This document shows positions 2,190-32,132 of a DNA stretch of 64,000 nt, piece by piece; the first letter of the stretch is position 1; each line of letters starts with the position of its first letter. Source of the stretch: Clostridia bacterium (GTDB lineage Bacteria; Bacillota; Peptococcia; DRI-13; UBA5745); contig JAHDPO010000006.1 in NCBI GenBank assembly GCA_018434325.1, positions 31,668 through 95,667 of the forward strand. Reading direction: 5' to 3'. The notes beneath the pieces were generated by a model. It made no database searches and was not told where the DNA came from. It saw only the letters and a program-made list of their open reading frames with translations. Position numbers and translations under genes: made by a program.

Positions 2190-3065
2190 TCAGCCTCCTT
2201 CTGTCACTCTAATATTCAGCTTGTTTATCTTAAGAAATAAATTTTCCAAAATTAATAAGGCATTCACATTGCGCTCCAAAAAATAGCCCGCCTGCCAAAC
2301 CTCTTCCAAAGCAGTCAGAAGCTTGCGCCCATCGGCGGCAAGGCCTGCCGGCAGGTTTTCTGCCAAACCCGCGGCGGCAGCCCCGGGGCTCAAATGGCTG
2401 ACCAGGCTTTCCCGCAATAAAAACTCCAAGGCGGCCAAAAATTCCGGCAGCCTTTTTTTGCGGCTGCCTTCCACGAAAGCAGCTTTATCAAACACGGCAT
2501 AATAGCCCTGGCTTTCCAGGGCTCTCACTACATCCAGGACCAGGTCTAATTCCGTCTGAGCAGGCGGAAGCTGCCGGCTGCCAAAATCAATCAGCTGGCA
2601 ACGGGAGCGAACTGTCGGCAGCAAATCCTGGGGCCTGTCCGTCAAAAGCAGCAGAATCGTATCCTCCGGCGGCTCCTCCAGGGTTTTCAGCAGGCAGTTT
2701 TGACTTTCTTCCCTCATCCGGTGGGCGTCCAGCAAAGCCGCCACCTTAACCTGACCGGCCGGCGCTTTGCCCGCCAGCTTAACCTGCAGCTCCCGGATCT
2801 GGCGGATCTGAATCAGACCAGCCGCTCCCTGGGGAGCGATCGTCAGCCAGTAAGGGAAAACAGCCGATTTAATTTGACGGCAGTGGTCACAGCTGCCGCA
2901 AGGCCTGGAGCTTGTCTCCTCCTCCAGGCAATTCAAAAATGCCGCCAGGCTCTCGGCTTCCTCGAGAAGAACCTGGGGATTATTCCCTTTAAATATCAAA
3001 GCATGGCTTATCTTTTGCCTGCCGGCCAGGCCCAAGTCCCGGACGGCTAAAGAAACTGGGGACAT
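2190..3065 (-). CDS. holB: DNA polymerase III delta' subunit
   Basis: HALIF-G...G, zinc module CGSCDHCRQI, LKTLEEPP and SRCQ motifs. Position next to yaaT. Confidence 0.85.
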   Translation of the reverse strand: MSPVSLAVRDLGLAGRQKISHALIFKGNNPQVLLEEAESLAAFLNCLEEETSSRPCGSCDHCRQIKSAVFPYWLTIAPQGAAGLIQIRQIRELQVKLAGKAPAGQVKVAALLDAHRMREESQNCLLKTLEEPPEDTILLLLTDRPQDLLPTVRSRCQLIDFGSRQLPPAQTELDLVLDVVRALESQGYYAVFDKAAFVEGSRKKRLPEFLAALEFLLRESLVSHLSPGAAAAGLAENLPAGLAADGRKLLTALEEVWQAGYFLERNVNALLILENLFLKINKLNIRVTEGG

Positions 3066-3073
3066 TGCTTCTC

Positions 3074-3400
3074 CTAAATCTTATAATTCTCCAGCACATC
3101 CAAGACAAATACGGTGGCGCCGCCCATCCTGACCATAACATCCACGGGGATAATACTTTCCTCGGCAGCCAGCATAGGGGTCATGGGCACCATTTGCTTG
3201 CGGGGCTTGCAAACCCGCCGGATCACCTGAAGCACTTCTTCTTTCTTTTCGTCATCGACGCCAATTAATAAAGTGGTATTGCCCCGGCGCAAAAAACCAC
3301 CGCTGCTGGCCAGCTTCGTAGCCTGAAACCCACCTTCCGACAAAGCGTCCAACAAAGCATGAATATCCATATCGTCAACGACACACATGACCAGTTTCAT
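3074..3400 (-). CDS. darA: PII-like cyclic-di-AMP receptor DarA (YaaQ/PstA family)
   Basis: 108 aa, MKLV.CVV.D.D...L...L.E.GF.ATKL.S.GGFLR.GN.TLLIGV pattern. Immediately upstream of holB as in Bacillus. Confidence 0.85.
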   Translation of the reverse strand: MKLVMCVVDDMDIHALLDALSEGGFQATKLASSGGFLRRGNTTLLIGVDDEKKEEVLQVIRRVCKPRKQMVPMTPMLAAEESIIPVDVMVRMGGATVFVLDVLENYKI

Positions 3401-3531
3401 TTTTCACGCCTCCTCTTTCTATAATATATCAATAATATCATACCACAATCACCTATTCCTTACCACAAAGTTTTTTGATACACTAAATAAGTGCCAAGAG
3501 TCAAAAGGAGCTGAGAAAGCGAAGGTGTGTT

Positions 3532-3993
3532 ATGAAAAAAATTGATGAAACCGACCAAAAAATACTGGATCTCCTTTGCGAAGACGCCAGAATGTCCTAC
3601 GCGGAGCTGGGACGGCGTCTGAATCTAACCAGGGTCACCGTCAGAGAACGGGTCAACGATTTAGTGGAATCAGGAGTCATTGAACGTTTCAGCATCATCA
3701 TCAATCCTGCCAAAGCCGGTTATCACTTGTCCGCTTTCTTTGAAATAGGCGTTCACCCCAGCAAACTTCACGAAGTAGCAAAAACTCTGGCCGGCAATAA
3801 GTTTGTCCAAAGCGTCAATCAAATGACAGGCCCCAACACCCTTCACGTCCATGCCAGCTTATACGACAACAATCATCTCCAGGATTTTATGAAAGACGCT
3901 ATTTATAATTTGCCCGGTATTAACAATGTTAACAGTTATGTGTTGCTGCGGGGTTTCAAAGTTAAGCGTGGCGGCGTGAAAATTGGCAATTGA
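3532..3993 (+). CDS. Lrp/AsnC-family transcriptional regulator
   Basis: 153 aa. N-terminal HTH (DQKILDLLCEDARMSYAELGRRLNLTRVTVRERVNDLVESGVI) plus C-terminal RAM-like domain. Confidence 0.85.
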   Translation: MKKIDETDQKILDLLCEDARMSYAELGRRLNLTRVTVRERVNDLVESGVIERFSIIINPAKAGYHLSAFFEIGVHPSKLHEVAKTLAGNKFVQSVNQMTGPNTLHVHASLYDNNHLQDFMKDAIYNLPGINNVNSYVLLRGFKVKRGGVKIGN

Positions 3994-4005
3994 CTGAATA
4001 TCGCC

Positions 4006-4056
4006 TTACATTGTAAACAAAAAATTTTTAACCACCGGAAAGTCCGTACATTGTAA
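4006..4056 (+). promoter_or_regulatory. Two copies of a TACATTGTAA palindrome, candidate operator pair upstream of the UbiD operon
   Basis: ccTTACATTGTAAac at 4006-4016 (perfect palindrome TTACA-T-TGTAA) and ccGTACATTGTAAtc at 4046-4056, 40 bp apart. A TATACT -10-like hexamer lies at 4081-4086. Confidence 0.45.
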
Positions 4057-4182
4057 TCTTCTTTTCTTTTTCCTATTTGCTATACTGGTCACAGTGCAGA
4101 CTGCATAGCATAGAAAAAGGAAACACGATGCGGGCCCGTCGGTGGTTATTTTTCTTTAAAAGATGTAAGGAGGAGATGGCTT

Positions 4183-5589
4183 GTGCCAAAAGATTTGCGT
4201 TACTTTCTAGACAAGATGCAAAAGGAGATGCCGGAGGACCTGATCACCGTCAACAAAGAAATAGATCCTAAATTTGAGATCGTTGCTATTCAGCAAAAAT
4301 TGGAGGATCAAAACCGTTATCCCTTACTTTTGTTTGAGAACGTCAAAGACAATTACGGCCAGCCCAGCGGCTTTCGCCTGGCCACCAATGTCTTTGCCAA
4401 CCGGGCCCATTGCGCCCTGGCTCTGGAAATGCCCAAAGATAAATGGCAAATGGACACCAGCCTGCAATATTCCCGGCTGGCTCATCAGCCGATCAAGCCC
4501 GTTGTGGTAGACCGGGCCGAGGCCCCTTGCAAAGAAGTGATCATCACCGGCGACGATGTGGATATGTATAAGCTGCCGGTATTGACTCATCATGAAATGG
4601 ACGGTCTGCCCTATTTGCCGGATGTGGTGGTAGCCGCCGACCCCGATACCGGCGTTTATAATACCTCTCATCACCGGATGATCATTGCCGGCAAAAACGA
4701 TTCCCGGATCTGGATGAGCCCCCGCCATCTTTGGAATTATTTTATGAGAGCCCAGGAAAAGGGCCAGCCCTTGCCTATCGCCCACGTTTTAGGCCATCAT
4801 CCCTGTTTCTACCTGGGTTCTGAGTCCATATTGCCCATGCAGAGCGATGAGTACGCAACCATCGGCGGACTCCTTCAGGAGCCCCTGCGGCTGGTGCCCT
4901 CGGAAACTTACGGCGATAAGCTGATGGTGCCGGCAGATGCGGAGATCATTGTGGAAGGCGAGATTTTGCCAAACCTGCGGGAACCGGAAGGCCCCTTCGG
5001 TGAATTTACCGGCTATTACGGCCCTCAGCGCTGGTCTCCCGTGGTGAAAATCAAGGCCATCACCCATCGTAAAAACCCCATCTATTTGAATGTCCTTTGC
5101 GGTCATCCCGACACCTCTATTGTGGGCGGCATTGCCAAGGAGGCCTGTCTTTATGAAGAGTTGAAGCGCACCATGCCCGGTATCCAAGCCGTTCATCTGC
5201 CAATTTCCGGCTGCTGCCGTTTCCATGCTTATATTTCAATCAAGCAGCGCTTTAATGGCGAAGCCAAAATGGCCGGTCTGGCCGCTCTGCCTCATCACGA
5301 TATCGTGAAGCATATCGTAGTGGTCGACGAGGATATCGATCCCTTCAATGAAAAGGAGGTTTTGTGGGCCCTGGCCACCCGGGTTCAGGCCGATAAGGAT
5401 GTGACGATTATCCCCCATTGCCGGGGCGGCTTGCTGGATCCCTCTTGTACGATTGAAGGCATCGGCGCTAAAATGATCATTGACGCTACCAAACCGATGA
5501 CCCGTCCCTATGAAGAAAAAATCAGCGTGCCTAAAGAAGTTATGGATCGTATCCACTTAAAAGACTTTCTGGGAAAGGACTGGTGTTAA
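4183..5589 (+). CDS. UbiD-family prenyl-FMN-dependent (de)carboxylase
   Basis: 468 aa, GTG start 8 nt after AAGGAGG. UbiD signature EGPFGEFTGYY and overall UbiD-like layout. UbiX is encoded in the same block. Confidence 0.85.
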   Translation: MPKDLRYFLDKMQKEMPEDLITVNKEIDPKFEIVAIQQKLEDQNRYPLLLFENVKDNYGQPSGFRLATNVFANRAHCALALEMPKDKWQMDTSLQYSRLAHQPIKPVVVDRAEAPCKEVIITGDDVDMYKLPVLTHHEMDGLPYLPDVVVAADPDTGVYNTSHHRMIIAGKNDSRIWMSPRHLWNYFMRAQEKGQPLPIAHVLGHHPCFYLGSESILPMQSDEYATIGGLLQEPLRLVPSETYGDKLMVPADAEIIVEGEILPNLREPEGPFGEFTGYYGPQRWSPVVKIKAITHRKNPIYLNVLCGHPDTSIVGGIAKEACLYEELKRTMPGIQAVHLPISGCCRFHAYISIKQRFNGEAKMAGLAALPHHDIVKHIVVVDEDIDPFNEKEVLWALATRVQADKDVTIIPHCRGGLLDPSCTIEGIGAKMIIDATKPMTRPYEEKISVPKEVMDRIHLKDFLGKDWC

Positions 5590-26432: not shown

Positions 26433-28298
26433 CTATTCGCTTAACTTCACGATATCGCTGCCAAAGATTTCAATCGCTTTCTGAATCGGGTCCGTATCCT
26501 CCTCTTTGTCCCAAAAACCGCATTCCACTTCAAGGCCGCCGCCCAATACCTGGCAAGCCGCGTCTTTGATCATTTGCAGGTTGTCTCTTTCTACGCAGCG
26601 ATCTCTATGAAAGCGGCCTTTGTCCGGATCAAAAAATATACGCAGCACACCGCTGGTCAGCTCCTGCCGCAATGCCGCCAACAGGAAAGCGTGGAGAACA
26701 ATTTTTTGTCCTTTGATAAGCTGCAGGATCTGCTCCCACTGAGAGGCAGACAGGTCGCCGCCAGAGCTTGAACCGGCGGCAGTGGAGTTCAAGCCGCCAG
26801 CTGCCTTTAAGCCTAAGGCAGCCTTTATCGGGGGTTGCTCTTTGGCAGAAGCTTCGGTTGGAGCAACAGGAGCCTTCGTCTTGGCAGCCGCGGGCGCTGC
26901 CTCGGCAGAGGCGGAAAAGGCCGTTGCCCGCTGACTTTCGCTTTCGCTTGCGCTTGCTGTCCGGCGGCTTCCGACTCCGTCCCTCGGGCCGCTATCTGGC
27001 TGAGAAGAGAACTGAGCTTCTTCCCAAGGCGGCCTTTCTTGCGTTTTGCTAAAATCGGGAGCTGGCATCGCCGGTCTTGCCGATGGGGCCTGACTTGCCC
27101 TCTCTCTTTGGCCGCCGGACGATCCCTGGCCGCCGAACTGACTCTGGCTACCAGACTGCCTCAGTCCTCCCGGCTGCGCCCCGGCCAGCCAGGCTTGTCC
27201 TTCCTGGCCCGGCTGATCAAGCAATAGTCCGGCAAACAATGCCTCCGCCATGTAGCGGCTGTTGCCCCGGTATCTGCCGCCGGCTACCCCCTGGTCCAGC
27301 CGGGTTAATATCTGCTGCAGCCTGGATGCTCCCAGCTTGCCGCTTTGCTCAACCATCAGCCGCCGCTGCTGGCCGGCCGCTATGACCAGCTCCGTCCCTT
27401 GGCCGCAGAGAGCCAAAAGCAGCAAATCCCGGCAATAGCCGGCAAACTCTTTCAGCAGCTGCATAGGATCTACACCTTGGGTGAACAAGGCTTCCAGCTC
27501 CATGAAAAGCTCCGTAGCTTCGCCATCGATCACCGCCGTCAAAAGAGAGGCCAGCGCTTCCTGGCGCACCAGGCCCAAAATAGCGCAGGTGTCGTCCAGC
27601 GTCAGCCGGTCAGGGCTGAAGGAAAGGCATTGATCCAATAAGCTGATGGCATCCCGGAGGCCGCCGTCAGCCTGCCGAATGATCAGGGATAAAGCTTCCG
27701 GATCCACCTTCCTCTCCTGACCGGCGATGATTTCCTCCAGCCGGCCTTTAATGGCTTCATAAGAAATCTTGCGGAAATCAAAGCGCTGGCAACGGGAAAG
27801 CACCGTCGGCGGCAGCTTTTGGGGATCCGTGGTAGCCAGCACAAAAATCACATGTGCCGGCGGCTCCTCTAAGGTTTTCAGCAAGGCATTGAACGCCTCG
27901 TTGGTCAGCATATGAACTTCGTCAACAATATAAACCTTATATTTGCCTAACGCCGGTAAAAAGCTGATTTTCTCTTTCAACTCCCGGATCTCTTCAATGC
28001 CCCGGTTGGAAGCGCCGTCGATCTCCAGCACATCCAGGGCATTGCCTCGGGTGATGGTTTGGCAGCTTTCACATTCGCCGCAAGGGTGAGCGCCATTGCG
28101 GTTAGTACAATTCAGGGCTTTAGCCAATATCCTGGCCGTACTGGTCTTGCCCGTCCCCCTTGGCCCGGTAAACAGATAGGCATGGCTGATCCTATCCTGC
28201 AAAATAGCATTTTCCAAGGTCCGGCGGATATGCTCCTGTCCCGCCAGCTCTTCAAAACCCTGGGGCCGCCAGACCCGGTATAATACTTGATAAGTCAT
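26433..28298 (-). CDS. dnaX: DNA polymerase III subunit gamma/tau
   Basis: Start moved to MTYQVLYRVWRPQ. GPRGTGKTS Walker A, zinc module CGECESCQ, DEVHML, LKTLEEPP and SRCQRF motifs. Long low-complexity linker. Confidence 0.9.
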   Translation of the reverse strand: MTYQVLYRVWRPQGFEELAGQEHIRRTLENAILQDRISHAYLFTGPRGTGKTSTARILAKALNCTNRNGAHPCGECESCQTITRGNALDVLEIDGASNRGIEEIRELKEKISFLPALGKYKVYIVDEVHMLTNEAFNALLKTLEEPPAHVIFVLATTDPQKLPPTVLSRCQRFDFRKISYEAIKGRLEEIIAGQERKVDPEALSLIIRQADGGLRDAISLLDQCLSFSPDRLTLDDTCAILGLVRQEALASLLTAVIDGEATELFMELEALFTQGVDPMQLLKEFAGYCRDLLLLALCGQGTELVIAAGQQRRLMVEQSGKLGASRLQQILTRLDQGVAGGRYRGNSRYMAEALFAGLLLDQPGQEGQAWLAGAQPGGLRQSGSQSQFGGQGSSGGQRERASQAPSARPAMPAPDFSKTQERPPWEEAQFSSQPDSGPRDGVGSRRTASASESESQRATAFSASAEAAPAAAKTKAPVAPTEASAKEQPPIKAALGLKAAGGLNSTAAGSSSGGDLSASQWEQILQLIKGQKIVLHAFLLAALRQELTSGVLRIFFDPDKGRFHRDRCVERDNLQMIKDAACQVLGGGLEVECGFWDKEEDTDPIQKAIEIFGSDIVKLSE

Positions 28299-28349
28299 AA
28301 GATAATTCCTTCCCTTGATCTGTGTAAAGCCCGATAATCCTATGCTTCC

Positions 28350-28379
28350 AGTATAGCATTGAAGAGCTAAAACTGCCAA
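28350..28379 (-). promoter_or_regulatory. Possible dnaX promoter
   Basis: Minus strand TTGGCA (28379-28374), an 18-bp spacer, then TGcTATACT (extended -10, 28358-28350). Confidence 0.4.
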
Positions 28380-28445
28380 TACTATAACTACAGACGCCTG
28401 TTTCTGAGGGCAATATCCCATTTTGCAGGCAGTCATTTGTTTCTC

Positions 28446-28474
28446 TTGAAGTATAAAATCATTTGTGGTAAGAT
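28446..28474 (+). promoter_or_regulatory. Promoter of the candidate antisense sRNA
   Basis: TTGAAG (28446-28451), a 17-bp spacer, then TGgTAAGAT (extended -10, hexamer 28469-28474). Confidence 0.55.
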
Positions 28475-28480
28475 ATAAAT

Positions 28481-28567
28481 ACAAATAGGAACTGCTGCTT
28501 TTTGTGGGGCGGCAGTCCCTCAGTTATGGGGTTTGACCGCCTGTTTCAGCAGGCGGTCATTTTTTTC
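28481..28567 (+). ncRNA. Candidate ~85-nt antisense sRNA (type I antitoxin-like)
   Basis: Starts about 7 nt after the -10. 5' hairpin GGAACUGCUGC / GCGGCAGUCCC, then the terminator GACCGCCUG-uuuc-AGCAGGCGGUC followed by AUUUUUUU. Its 3' end is complementary to the stop codon and 3' UTR of the convergent 29-aa ORF. Confidence 0.5.
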
Positions 28568-28646
28568 TCTTGTTGTTCAACAACAAAGAGGCGAATGCTA
28601 TAGCAACCAAGCAGAAGGTCAAAAACTCCATCCACGTTATTGCCAT
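28557..28646 (-). CDS. Candidate type I toxin: 29-aa hydrophobic peptide with a Lys-rich tail
   Basis: My translation: MAITWMEFLTFCLVAIAFASLLLNNKRKK. AGGTGA lies 7 nt upstream of the ATG (28646). It has one predicted TM helix plus NNKRKK. Not in the ORF track because it is under 60 aa. Confidence 0.5.
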   Translation of the reverse strand: MAITWMEFLTFCLVAIAFASLLLNNKRKK

Positions 28647-28762
28647 ATATATCACCTACATACGCGTTCTTAGTATCTCAGGATAGCGGATTGAGGCCGT
28701 ACGCTCCCTCATTATTCGCTAATGAGAGGGAAAACCGCCAAGCAACAGTTCCTATACGTTGT

Positions 28763-28771
28763 ATTATAACA
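28763..28771 (-). promoter_or_regulatory. Extended -10 promoter (TGtTATAAT) for the toxin-like mRNA
   Basis: Minus strand tgttataat. The predicted 5' end lies near 28755, giving a ~109-nt leader containing the hairpin CUCUCAUUA / UAAUGAGGG. Confidence 0.45.
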
Positions 28772-28888
28772 TTTTTTCCATAAAATTCCGATATCATTTC
28801 TTTATCTTTACTTGTTTGCATTATTCGCCGCATTATGATAATTTATGGGTTAGAATTCCGCCAAATTTATTCTTTAGGAGGCTCGTTA

Positions 28889-30700
28889 ATGCTCCAGTAT
28901 CGCATTCCGGCTAAATCACTCATGATCATCCTGCTACCTGCCTTATTGATATTCAGCATGTTTTCTATTATGCTGTTTCCCCTGCCGGCTTTGGCTGCCG
29001 ACGCCGACCACTATACCTCCCGGGTTTATGTGGTGGTAGACACGGCTTTGGCCGACTCCAGCGATGCCGTGGAGCTGGACGTAATGCTCTTTGCCCCCGG
29101 CCACGGCCTGGTGACGGATAACAGCATTTACTGCGCCTCCTCCCGCAAAGACGACAGCATTTCCATCGGCGCCAACGAAGACGGCCTGATTAAAGTGGAA
29201 ATCTCCAGCTCAAGCCCCGGCATTTCTCAAATCGCTTTGTCCCTGGTATCTCAAGATGCGGCGGCCAGGTTCCTGCAAGGAAAAATCGGCACTTACGAAG
29301 GCAAAATCCTGCAAACCAGTACAGGAGCCGAAACTTTCCCTGTTTATTTTATTGCCGGCAGCCTGGATCCGGAATACTGCCTTATGGAGTTTGATAAAGA
29401 CACCATTGCCGTCACCGATCAACAATATACGGACAATGCCATCGGCACCATTTATCTGCGGACGGAAATCGATCAGCCCGTGGCTAATCAGCGGGTGACG
29501 ATCTACACCAAGAAAAATGGCGTTCTCCTATATCCTGCCCTCAGTTCTTCCACCAATAAAGGTGAAGGCTCTTCAATCAACCTGGTTACCGATAAGAACG
29601 GTACCGCTTCTTTTGTTGTCCGCGGCTACGAGGCAGGTGATGCCGAGATTATCTGTGATGTGGATGGCGAGGAATTCAGCGAATTCATTTATATCGACCT
29701 GGCGGAAAATGTTTTCGATCTGGAGACGGATGACTGGGGCGATGAGGAAGATGAGGAGGAAGAAGACGAAGAGCTGATTATCAGCCGGGAGAATACCAAG
29801 GTCAATCTCTCTAAATCCATAGCTCTGGAATATGGCAGCAACGCCTATTATAATTTCCCCGATACGGAAGCCGGCCGGGACAAAATTATCATTGGCGGCG
29901 TGGCTATGACTGCCGATGACGAGCCGGTACGGGGACAACATCTGGTGCAGGCTTACGTTACTGCCGGCAATCTGGACAAAAGCACTACGCTGACCACCAG
30001 CAACGGCGGCGCTTTTTCTTTCAGCCTCACCTCCAAGGAGATTTGCCTAGGCCGCTATGCCGTTGGTTTAGGCACAACTGAGCAGCTGAAAGGCTATCTG
30101 GAAGGCACCGTCAGTGCCGACGATTGCCAGCTATTAGGCACGGGAATGTACGCCTTCATCGGCCATAACTGGAATAAATACATGATCTGCGCCATCGGCG
30201 ATAAACAGACGATCATCAACGGCTACCTTGAAGAAATGGATGTAGCGCCTTTCATTCAAAACGGCAGGACGATGATGATTGCCAGACCCATAGCCAATAC
30301 CATCGATGCAATCAGCAAATGGGATCAGGCCAAACAAACCGCCAGCTTCTATGTGGGCAGCGGTAATTATACCATTGCCATGAAGGTGGGCAGCACTATC
30401 ATTGATCGCACGGAAACCTATGTGGCTCCTAAGCAGTTTACCAGCGACGTGGCCGCCATGGTCAAAGAAGGCCGCACCGTGCTGCCCTTACGGGCTTTGG
30501 GAGAAGCCTTCAAGATGCAGACCATCTACGACGCCGGCCAGCAGCTGGTGGCCGTTTACAATACGGCTGTCAAATATCCTACCCGTTACAATCCGAAGAA
30601 AGACCCCAATCATCCCGATTACGACCCCGTCATGGACCCCAACAGCGATCAATACGATGCCACCAAGGACCCGGACAGCGACGAATACATTGAACCATAA
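28889..30700 (+). CDS. Large secreted protein with Ig-like repeats and a C-terminal copper-amine-oxidase-N-terminal-like (stalk) domain
   Basis: Start moved to MLQYRIPAKS (AGGAGG upstream). Signal peptide ...LPALA-ADAD and Big-like segments (TDKNGTASFVVRGYEAGDAEIICDV). Also an acidic run DDWGDEEDEEEEDEE, paired G-RT..P.R motifs (IQNGRTMMIARPIA / VKEGRTVLPLRALGEAF) and a DP-rich tail. Confidence 0.7.
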   Translation: MLQYRIPAKSLMIILLPALLIFSMFSIMLFPLPALAADADHYTSRVYVVVDTALADSSDAVELDVMLFAPGHGLVTDNSIYCASSRKDDSISIGANEDGLIKVEISSSSPGISQIALSLVSQDAAARFLQGKIGTYEGKILQTSTGAETFPVYFIAGSLDPEYCLMEFDKDTIAVTDQQYTDNAIGTIYLRTEIDQPVANQRVTIYTKKNGVLLYPALSSSTNKGEGSSINLVTDKNGTASFVVRGYEAGDAEIICDVDGEEFSEFIYIDLAENVFDLETDDWGDEEDEEEEDEELIISRENTKVNLSKSIALEYGSNAYYNFPDTEAGRDKIIIGGVAMTADDEPVRGQHLVQAYVTAGNLDKSTTLTTSNGGAFSFSLTSKEICLGRYAVGLGTTEQLKGYLEGTVSADDCQLLGTGMYAFIGHNWNKYMICAIGDKQTIINGYLEEMDVAPFIQNGRTMMIARPIANTIDAISKWDQAKQTASFYVGSGNYTIAMKVGSTIIDRTETYVAPKQFTSDVAAMVKEGRTVLPLRALGEAFKMQTIYDAGQQLVAVYNTAVKYPTRYNPKKDPNHPDYDPVMDPNSDQYDATKDPDSDEYIEP

Positions 30701-30760: not shown

Positions 30761-31111
30761 CTAGTTCTCACTTAAAACATTTTGGCAATATGATTTTAGC
30801 TTTGGTATATCGTTTACCACAGTCTCCCAAACGTCTGGGATGCTGATATTTACATAAGCATGAGCAGCAATATTGCGCATGGCTCTTATACTTCTCCAAG
30901 GGATTTGGTTATGTGTATTCGTAAATTCATCGGATAACCGACCCGTAAGCTCACCGATCTGCAAAATACACATAGTGACAGCGTTTCGATAAATTTTATC
31001 TGAACTGAAAACCTCTAAGGAATCTCCAAAGCGTTCTACTGTCTGCTCAACTTCTTCACAATATTCAAGGATATGGGTAATAAATCTCATATCCTTTTTG
31101 TTAATGTCCAT
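30761..31111 (-). CDS. hepT: HepT-type (DUF86) toxin of a type VII TA pair
   Basis: 116 aa. RX4HXY motif present as RNIAAHAY. Overlaps the upstream nucleotidyltransferase gene by 11 bp. Confidence 0.8.
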   Translation of the reverse strand: MDINKKDMRFITHILEYCEEVEQTVERFGDSLEVFSSDKIYRNAVTMCILQIGELTGRLSDEFTNTHNQIPWRSIRAMRNIAAHAYVNISIPDVWETVVNDIPKLKSYCQNVLSEN

Positions 31112-31400
31112 ATATCAGCACCTCTTCAGAAGCAATTTCTCTTCTGAACGCCTCATCGAGGCTATCTGTGGTAAGCAAATCTATAGGTACATTAAAAGCA
31201 TCCTCTAAATCAGCATACAACCCACCCAATGCAATCAGGCCTTTAATACGCCCTCTGTCGATACGAAAATCCAAATCACTGCCTGCTTTCTGTTCACCTC
31301 TTGCATAAGAGCCAAACAGAAACATACGCTCAACACCATGGCGGGCAGCAATTTCTCCAGCTATTTGACTTATTTCCTCAACAGTATATGCCTTTTCCAC
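31101..31400 (-). CDS. mntA: MntA-type minimal nucleotidyltransferase antitoxin
   Basis: GSYARGEQKAGSDLDF (GSX10DXD). Start set at the GTG (MEKAYTVEE) 5 nt after GAGGTGA. TGgTATAAT promoter-like sequence upstream. Confidence 0.75.
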   Translation of the reverse strand: MEKAYTVEEISQIAGEIAARHGVERMFLFGSYARGEQKAGSDLDFRIDRGRIKGLIALGGLYADLEDAFNVPIDLLTTDSLDEAFRREIASEEVLIYGH

Positions 31401-31535
31401 AGATCTCACCTCTCTTGTGCGATTTCTAATATTGTACATCATACAAGCGGAGCCGATAAGGCACAATCGGCCATCAAGGTTATTATACCATAAAAAGCCA
31501 AATCTTAACTACGGCAAGAGCAGCAGCGGTCATCC

Positions 31536-32132
31536 TTATCGCTTCCTTATGCCCTCGAAGAAAAAGTCGGTGACCCGTTCCGCCGCCTCCTGAGGCATGT
31601 AATTATCCCATACGGAGCCGCTCCAGGACCGCATCAAATTCTTGACGGCACCCATTAAGGCCCCCAGAAACAGCTGGGGGTCCACCGGCCGTATCTCGTC
31701 GCTTGCTACGCCGGCATTAATGATCTCCTCCAGCCACCGCTGCCAACGCAAATTTTCCTCCTGAGCCATGCTCTGGAATTCCTTCATCGCATTGCCCAAT
31801 TCTGCCGGATTAATATTCATGCCCAGATAGCAGCCTTTATGGTGGCGGAGCATCACCGTCTCCACCAGGGCCTTTATCTTATCTTTTACGGTGGACACCC
31901 CATCCATCTTGTTTTTTACCTGCCGGGTCATTTCCTCCATCTCATAACCGACGGCCGCCGACAACAATTCTTCTTTGCTGCGGAAATATTCATATACCGT
32001 ACCTTTGCCGATACCGGCAGCGGCGGCCACCTCTTCAATCCGGGTATTGTGGAAGCCTTTGCTGCCAAAGGCCCCCAGCGCCGCCCTGATAATCTCTTCC
32101 CGCCGGTTTTTCTGTGCTTTTTCTTTCTCCAT
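31536..32132 (-). CDS. TetR/AcrR-family regulator
   Basis: 198 aa, N-terminal HTH IIRAALGAFGSKGFHNTRIEEVAAAAGIGKGTVYEYF. Last gene of the efflux operon. Confidence 0.85.
   Translation of the reverse strand: MEKEKAQKNRREEIIRAALGAFGSKGFHNTRIEEVAAAAGIGKGTVYEYFRSKEELLSAAVGYEMEEMTRQVKNKMDGVSTVKDKIKALVETVMLRHHKGCYLGMNINPAELGNAMKEFQSMAQEENLRWQRWLEEIINAGVASDEIRPVDPQLFLGALMGAVKNLMRSWSGSVWDNYMPQEAAERVTDFFFEGIRKR

Follow-up and report, generated by a model that had tools for sequence, protein, structure and literature searches.

Most known type I toxin-antitoxin (TA) families come from Proteobacteria, Bacilli and Clostridioides, and gene callers and homology searches miss them. In Bacillus subtilis, binding of the antitoxin at the 3′ end of the toxin mRNA triggers RNase III cleavage, and SR4 also refolds the mRNA around the Shine-Dalgarno (SD) sequence; in par, a helix sequestering the 5′ end of the toxin mRNA contributes to mRNA stability. 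Gram-positive type I systems are organised with an antisense RNA on the 3′ side, overlapping the end of the open reading frame (ORF) (PMC8594479), and in fst the RNAs interact through 5′ direct repeats that lie beyond the overlap (PMC8594479). The highly structured hok and aapA mRNAs are closed, stable and inert, and this closure is in competition with binding of the antisense RNA (PMC6733600, PMC8594479). In these two systems the SD is occluded by the 3′ end, while the 5′ region is the site of antitoxin binding; trimming of the 3′ end switches on translation as well as antisense binding. Here we describe a stand-alone cassette of about 330 bp upstream of dnaX in a Clostridia bacterium (assembly GCA_018434325.1, contig JAHDPO010000006.1). 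It was found in a stretch of 64,000 nt (positions 31,668 to 95,667 of the contig), called the window below. The cassette would unite 3′-overlapping antisense control with 5′-3′ closure of the mRNA, so far described in separate lineages.

The cassette shares with txpA/RatA, bsrG/SR4, bsrE/SR5, bsrH and yonT of B. subtilis a Gram-positive host and a single-helix peptide with a basic C-terminus. As in txpA/RatA and bsrG/SR4, its predicted convergent antisense RNA lies on the 3′ side, covering the last part of the ORF and the 3′ untranslated region (UTR), which is the overlap architecture of Gram-positive pairs. Unlike the B. subtilis systems, it has no match to Pfam or NCBIfam toxin models or to Rfam antitoxin models, and the segment targeted by its antisense RNA doubles as predicted pairing partner for the 5′ end of the same mRNA. 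To our knowledge, from a non-exhaustive check of the literature, a small RNA (sRNA) whose 5′ end repeats that of the mRNA is not known from B. subtilis type I systems.

Like hok/Sok of plasmid R1 and aapA/IsoA of Helicobacter pylori, the cassette has an mRNA closed by a 5′-3′ long-distance interaction, predicted here from 26 pairs and from closed minimum free energy (MFE) structures in all eight aligned copies, with no covariation. These copies, about seven of them distinct, fall into two clades, one dnaX-linked and one sediment/TetR-linked. Unlike hok and aapA, the geometry is mirrored: the sRNA does not target the 5′ region of the mRNA but lies opposite the 3′ UTR and covers the 3′ strand of the helix, while the SD is outside the helix. 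The host is Gram-positive and there is no sequence homology. Convergent RNAs sharing a 3′ terminator region are also a feature of fst/RNAII (par of pAD1, Enterococcus) and of SprA1/SprA1as; unlike in fst, the complementarity here is the overlap itself, and no Fst model or Rfam family is matched.

A small hydrophobic ORF and a predicted convergent antisense RNA

The cassette sits between two genes 590 bp apart: dnaX, on the minus strand at 26433-28298 and with DNA_pol3_delta2 and related Pfam domains, and a surface-protein gene, on the plus strand at 28889-30700 and with Pfam Big_1 and Cu_amine_oxidN1. A first reading of the DNA, made from the sequence alone, had placed a type I TA module there, a position borne out by the ATG codons at 28298 and 28889. 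This original prediction is supported, as the ORF, the inverted repeat, the promoters and the terminator are all conserved in homologous loci. We consider it very probable that the locus is a selected module of a peptide and its antisense RNA, and we think that it probably forms a true toxin-antitoxin pair of a previously undescribed type I family. Comparison of the copies indicates that selection acts on the ORF, both promoters, the terminator and both strands of a long-range helix. Both transcripts with their ends, the toxicity of the peptide and the direction of regulation are what we infer from the sequence. The features of the cassette are, by coordinate:

28446-28474, plus strand: putative sRNA promoter, TTGAAG-17-TGgTAAGAT
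28481-28567, plus strand: candidate antisense sRNA of about 85 nt, with a G-U-rich 5′ hairpin, a weak CCCUC hairpin and a terminator
28485-28521, minus strand: mRNA 3′ UTR block GAGGG-ACUG-CCGCC-...-AAGCAGCAGUUCCUAU, 3′ strand of the predicted end-to-end pairing and target of the 5′ half of the sRNA
28534-28566, plus strand: intrinsic terminator UGACCGCCUG-loop-CAGGCGGUCA followed by U7, overlapping the peptide stop codon
28557-28646, minus strand: ORF of 29 codons and a stop; its product, MAITWMEFLTFCLVAIAFASLLLNNKRKK, has a single hydrophobic helix with a basic tail
28567-28590, minus strand: hairpin within the ORF, CUUGUUG-N5-CAACAAG (codons LLLNNK), with a stem conserved in all copies
28652-28657, minus strand: SD, AGGTGA, 5 nt ahead of the ATG
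28706-28730, minus strand: leader hairpin CCCUCUCAUUA...UAAUGAGGG, which shares CCCUC with the long-range helix
28726-28755, minus strand: first 30 nt of the predicted mRNA, AUAGGAACUGUUGCUU-GGCGG-UUUU-CCCUC, 5′ strand of the end-to-end pairing
28763-28771, minus strand: extended -10 promoter TGtTATAAT, with TGn and TATAAT or TAATAT in all eight copies

Type I toxins are expected as hydrophobic ORFs of 20-60 codons on mRNAs of 150-400 nt; the cassette has 29 codons on a predicted mRNA of about 270 nt. The ORF claimed at 28646-28557 is present and encodes MAITWMEFLTFCLVAIAFASLLLNNKRKK, with a mean Kyte-Doolittle hydropathy of 2.07 over residues 2-23, an NNKRKK tail and a net charge of +3. The claimed SD, AGGTGA, was located at 28657-28652; AGGTGAT is conserved in seven of the eight copies, and locus L093 has GGGAGTGAT instead. 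Across copies, the peptide measures 27-29 residues. It is the same in the window and in L081, and reads ...FCM...RNK in L093 and VTWLELFNFCLILLTLASLLSNNKKNK, from a GTG start, in L086. The sediment copies encode MAITW[NSG]EF[FL]AFCMVALAFASLLL[NS]NKGK, with one codon missing from one of the copies, and the peptide of L098 begins with MAITWNELFAFCM...

The ORF is conserved and uninterrupted in the homologous loci, and its substitutions indicate that it evolves as a coding sequence under purifying selection. Between clades, where ORF identity is 70%, the proportion of synonymous differences (pS) is 0.59-0.78 against 0.10-0.12 for nonsynonymous ones (pN), and the ratio of the two rates (dN/dS) is about 0.05-0.10. 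For the window against the sediment copies, this corresponds to 9.5-13 synonymous differences (Sd) on about 16 sites and 6.5-8 nonsynonymous ones (Nd) on about 67; synonymous sites are near saturation between clades. Variable sites are distributed over the three codon positions as 10/6/20 (20 of 36 at the third), a pattern that does not come from antisense constraint, because the sRNA overlaps the last codons only. Copy 2 of L095 has an in-frame 3-nt deletion in the ORF. In copy 1 of L096 (2163-2183), the hairpin inside the ORF shows a compensatory double change from G-C to A-U, at the cost of an Asn-to-Ser replacement.

The plus-strand promoter claimed at 28446-28474 is present in the sequence as stated. 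It matches the consensus at only 8 of 12 positions and falls below the listing of a simple promoter scanner. Five of the six columns of its -35 box are invariant across clades, the -10 box is conserved as TGn-TAAnAT (TAGAAT in L098), and the 17-nt spacing is found in all full copies. The spacer, in contrast, has no invariant column out of 14 and 9% identity between clades: both promoters and the terminator were kept where neutral positions diverged.

The terminator, proposed to lie over the peptide stop codon, is indeed there: the hairpin at 28534-28559 with its T-run covers the TGA and is the only terminator found within 28200-29000. In the window its stem includes the TGA, and in the sediment copies it starts right after the TAA or 1 nt further. 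Two pairs at its base have double, compensatory changes, and its loops vary. With two more changes, U-A to U-G and A-U to G-U, pairing survives only on the sRNA strand; the latter would give A.C on the other.

Complementarity between the sRNA and the peptide mRNA is complete from the stop codon through the 3′ block, that is, over the whole 3′ UTR, as expected at sequence level of an antisense RNA gene whose product pairs with a toxin mRNA. The predicted fold of the sRNA has -41.6 kcal/mol (z = -6.2), a stability reached by none of 200 shuffles. In the alignment of the seven distinct copies 94% of cells are paired, with conserved stems and variable loops. Indels are of 1-2 nt and not multiples of three, which marks the sRNA as noncoding. 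A covariance model of the sRNA recovered all copies and nothing else in 217 kb scanned. Promoter, terminator and noncoding indels together argue that the antisense RNA gene is under selection.

The peptide and the sRNA match no known family, as had been suspected for the peptide. It gave no Pfam family at E up to 10, only MIGRI_fam in NCBIfam (14.6 bits against a cutoff of 28) and nothing in PADLOC; the type I toxin families with Pfam or NCBIfam models (Fst/Ldr, TxpA/BsrG, Hok, TisB, Ibs, holin-like) were not recognised. HMMER returned no relatives from 1.84 billion protein representatives and an X-padded query no word-sharing candidates from 5.8 billion clusters, sets in which such small ORFs are evidently not included. 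Exact look-up of the 32-residue GTG form and of the 621-residue DnaX, a scan of metagenomes with back-translated ITWMEFLTFC, and searches of viral contigs and of plasmid and phage collections for the cassette all gave no match. A literature search with peptide strings, and for type I TA systems in Peptococcaceae/Desulfotomaculum, gave nothing relevant.

Rfam includes 13 type I antitoxin RNA families (PMC8594479). None corresponds to the sRNA: over the whole window and six related loci, nothing reached the gathering score and only weak matches appeared at E up to 10. The best of these, anti-hemB, scored 21 bits against a threshold of 49.5, and both its alignment and that of suhB fall mainly on the terminator hairpin.

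Predicted end-to-end pairing of the peptide mRNA

The extended -10 promoter at 28771-28763 puts A28755 at about +1 and gives a leader of 109 nt, in agreement with the promoter and the leader of about 109 nt first proposed. In all eight copies this -10 box stands 6-7 nt from an invariant block, the first 30 nt of the predicted mRNA, in which 30 of 30 columns are identical across both clades, though it lies outside the sRNA overlap. In the 3′ UTR block, 27 of 34 columns are invariant. The leader hairpin follows the 5′ block, and the rest of the leader (28658-28705) differs in length among copies; the leaders of L093 and the sediment copies are shorter by 55-70 nt, and there the hairpin abuts the SD.

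The sRNA carries AUAGGAACUGCUGCUU-(loop)-GGCGG-CAGU-CCCUC in its 5′ part. The mRNA's 5′ end is a near copy of this half, both being complementary to one segment of the 3′ UTR. The two RNAs had been proposed to be nearly identical over their first 16 nt. The shared 16-mer is present, but the -10 box of the sRNA lies 10 nt ahead of it, against 6-7 nt in the peptide-gene promoter, which puts the probable start of the sRNA 2-4 nt upstream of 28485.

The inverted repeat between 28485-28500 and 28740-28755 was confirmed, with 15 of 16 positions complementary; the pairing itself is longer than the 16 bp first described. Long-range complementarity amounts to 16 + 5 + 5 = 26 pairs (AUAGGAACUGUUGCUU, GGCGG and CCCUC) in all eight copies, and in each of them the MFE structure of the full-length mRNA closes with the 28726-28755/28485-28521 helix. 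The 276-nt minus-strand RNA of the window folds with -109.9 kcal/mol (z = -7.6), a stability equalled by none of 200 shuffles, and the inverted repeat closes the structure. By chance, 0.96 matches to the 16-mer are expected per window at three or fewer mismatches. The long-range pairing is nevertheless supported by conservation together with the complementarity of three blocks, a combination not predicted by a promoter-proximal operator or a transposon end. The inverted repeat travels with the ORF in relatives, and in half-copies without the partner strand the remaining arm carries substitutions. A U-rich run follows the 3′ arm in all copies; as a speculation, the closing helix and this run may terminate the mRNA.

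We propose the following scheme. An mRNA of about 270 nt, made from the extended -10 promoter, would encode a presumed membrane-active toxin, and the convergent sRNA of about 85 nt, made from its own promoter, would be the presumed antitoxin. The closed form would hide the 5′ end, leaving the mRNA stable and poorly translated. Binding of the sRNA would displace this 5′ end and create a long perfect duplex, with RNase III-type cleavage, decay from the 5′ end and/or refolding of CCCUC onto the G-rich leader and SD region as possible outcomes; the CU-rich CCCUC of the 5′ block has two alternative partners, the 3′ UTR and that region. Synthesis of the peptide would be blocked as long as the sRNA is produced.

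[quoted passage not shown] Equally tentative is the idea of an antitoxin by 5′-end mimicry, in which the first ~37 nt of the sRNA, near copies of the first 30 nt of the mRNA, compete for the 3′ UTR strand. If true, the cassette would be a strand-displacement switch and a mirror image of hok and aapA, with the level of the antitoxin coupled to the opening of the mRNA, and this opening would expose the 5′ end to decay and/or re-mask the ribosome-binding region. The invariant 30-nt 5′ block offers an experimental handle on the competition between an antisense RNA and an intramolecular helix.

Distribution and alternative readings

Relatives were reached by a protein search with DnaX; all are uncultured, with 93% and 79-81% DnaX identity, and their contigs were compared. 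The divergent arrangement of the surface-protein gene and dnaX is conserved in them. The cassette stands upstream of dnaX in L081 (93%), L086/L087 (80%) and L093 (79%). It is absent from L091, where the gap between the two genes is only 166 bp. L084 (79%; GCA_018436095.1, 2505-2890) has in exactly the cassette slot, between conserved flanks, an unrelated insert of about 390 nt with no Rfam match at E up to 1, no terminator and no small hydrophobic ORF; the slot looks like an insertion hotspot. The dnaX upstream region of L001, the closest GTDB representative among the matches listed (56% DnaX identity), is also without the cassette. A dnaX promoter, TTGGCA-18-TATACT, lies downstream of the slot and is conserved in all dnaX-linked relatives compared. 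This promoter and the relatives without the cassette imply that the cassette is neither a dnaX leader nor required.

Scanning JGI/ENA metagenome contigs with an invariant 23-mer led to L095, from sediment, and L096. In each, a TetR gene stands between two copies spaced 1262 nt apart, Fic, HTH and SDR genes are adjacent, and nothing outside the cassette is similar to the window. In this context the cassette is convergent with the TetR and SDR genes, away from any dnaX. The peptide and its inverted repeat, which the original prediction had suggested following in relatives, were thus found in both dnaX and TetR contexts. Homology between copies reaches about 45 nt past each arm, to both promoters. 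TetR homologues led further to L098/L099, with one full copy and an orphan sRNA and terminator without the 5′ half of the toxin gene. L097 has a mutated 5′ half only, its truncated ORF fused to foreign codons, and no sRNA; the more distant TetR-linked loci L100-L102 have no cassette.

TA cassettes usually duplicate, move, prove dispensable and decay into half-modules as they evolve, and the compared contigs indicate that this cassette is likewise mobile, duplicated, dispensable and decaying. The result is a candidate family from uncultured Peptococcaceae-like Bacillota and sediment-metagenome contigs, found through its RNA architecture alone. That architecture, condensed to ATAGGAACTGTTGCTTGGCGG ... 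GCAGCAGTTCCTAT, serves as a search pattern for more members.

Several observations weigh against the interpretation as a TA pair controlled through a closed mRNA. The data are few, with only two clades and about seven distinct copies, and the window holds a single one: neither blastn, tblastn nor the covariance model found further paralogues in it. In the L086 copy the ORF depends on a GTG start, an ATG is present out of frame, and dN/dS is higher, at 0.3-0.45. Covariation in the sRNA is modest, its score being reached by 14 of 500 column shuffles, and its second hairpin is weak (79% paired). A terminator scan of 28200-29000 found no intrinsic terminator on the mRNA strand, and we infer that the mRNA extends to 28485 only from conservation and the U-rich run. 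Both strands of the long-range helix are invariant, with no covariation. Finally, in the window the SD and start codon have a predicted unpaired probability of 0.29 in the full-length mRNA and 0.27 without the 3′ arm.

For the SD of the sediment copies, the corresponding values are 0.15-0.17 in the full-length and 0.25 in the 3′-truncated RNA. The SD is outside the helix, 25-95 nt away. A translational lock of the hok/aapA style by the long-range helix is not supported by the predicted accessibility of the SD; burying of the 5′ end, for stability, and competition with the sRNA would be more economical readings of the pairing.

An alternative that we find unlikely, yet worth keeping in mind, is a gene for a non-toxic small membrane protein with a cis-antisense regulator that tunes its expression, for example in membrane-protein or stress-response modulation. 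The data prove only a selected small ORF and its antisense RNA, toxicity being what the TA interpretation adds, and for many type I toxins encoded on chromosomes, native levels bring only mild toxicity (PMC6733600). Yet a cassette that moves, duplicates in tandem and decays to an orphan sRNA or a truncated ORF behaves as TA modules typically do, unlike housekeeping small proteins, and its absence from the close relatives L084 and L091 shows it to be dispensable. The size, single helix and basic tail of the peptide are those of Gram-positive type I toxins. Moreover, L097, the sole copy without the sRNA, has a heavily mutated and C-terminally replaced ORF.

Two other explanations appear highly improbable. 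One is a miniature mobile element, with the 16-bp inverted repeats acting at DNA level as terminal repeats and the ORF and hairpins as cargo or incidental. Different contexts, duplication, a slot swapped for other DNA and arms that are the best conserved parts would all suit it. However, homology continuing for about 45 nt beyond the arms means that these are not the ends of an element; they begin near +1 of two conserved promoters, and the further complementary blocks inside, GGCGG and CCCUC, fit an RNA helix and not a transposase site. There is also no other copy of an arm in the 64 kb and no match in plasmid or phage collections. The other, just as improbable, is a structured noncoding RNA or a minus-strand dnaX leader, SRP- or 6S-like with paired ends, in which the ORF is accidental. 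SRP and 6S RNA genes often lie near dnaX, and the cassette is directly upstream of dnaX on the same strand, with a very stable fold, a closing helix and no terminator ahead of dnaX on the minus strand. Nonetheless, the window and six related loci hold no Rfam family at the gathering threshold, and the ORF bears a codon-position signature and an in-frame indel; on the Rfam result and the coding signature we reject an SRP, a 6S or any other structured RNA in front of dnaX. The dnaX gene keeps its own promoter, two relatives do without the cassette, and elsewhere the cassette has TetR and SDR genes as convergent neighbours and no dnaX nearby.

Decayed copies and neighbouring genes

Next to the cassette, the window contains remains of a second one:

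28395-28461: decayed second copy of the peptide 3′ end and terminator, under and just past the sRNA promoter

Identity is 78% between 28425-28461 and 28549-28585, and 82% between 28395-28411 and 28538-28554. Against 28549-28572, the relic matches at 22 of 24 nt (E = 0.005), with an insertion in the loop. It is probably the trace of a tandem duplication of the cassette. The public DnaX gene call (P0001, 667 residues) begins 46 codons upstream of the conserved SD and ATG at 28298, and its extra N-terminal part (28299-28436, minus strand) reaches into this relic; the alignment of relatives favours the 621-residue start.

Ahead of the orphan sRNA in L098, an unrelated ORF of 28 codons, MNAAVTIPAIFIGFIDNCFAVMFDNVEK (2866-2952, minus strand), has the same end before the terminator. 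With no obvious SD and no Pfam match, it could be a replaced or degenerated toxin. In L095, copy 1 adjoins HTH_3 (XRE-type) and Fic/DOC genes (2764-4403, minus strand), a TA-like and mobile-rich neighbourhood. Several Logan contigs with dnaX start inside the 3′ block of the cassette (L082 and L083, position 1-28; L088-L090, 1-141); such assembly breaks hint at repeated copies or strain heterogeneity.

Just past the surface-protein gene, the window encodes a HEPN/MNT toxin-antitoxin pair (30761-31466, minus strand): the RNase is HepT-like (PF01934, E = 8.7e-21), the nucleotidyltransferase is of the MntA type (PF18765/PF01909), and the two overlap by 11 nt. At this position, L084 and L086 have a TetR gene.

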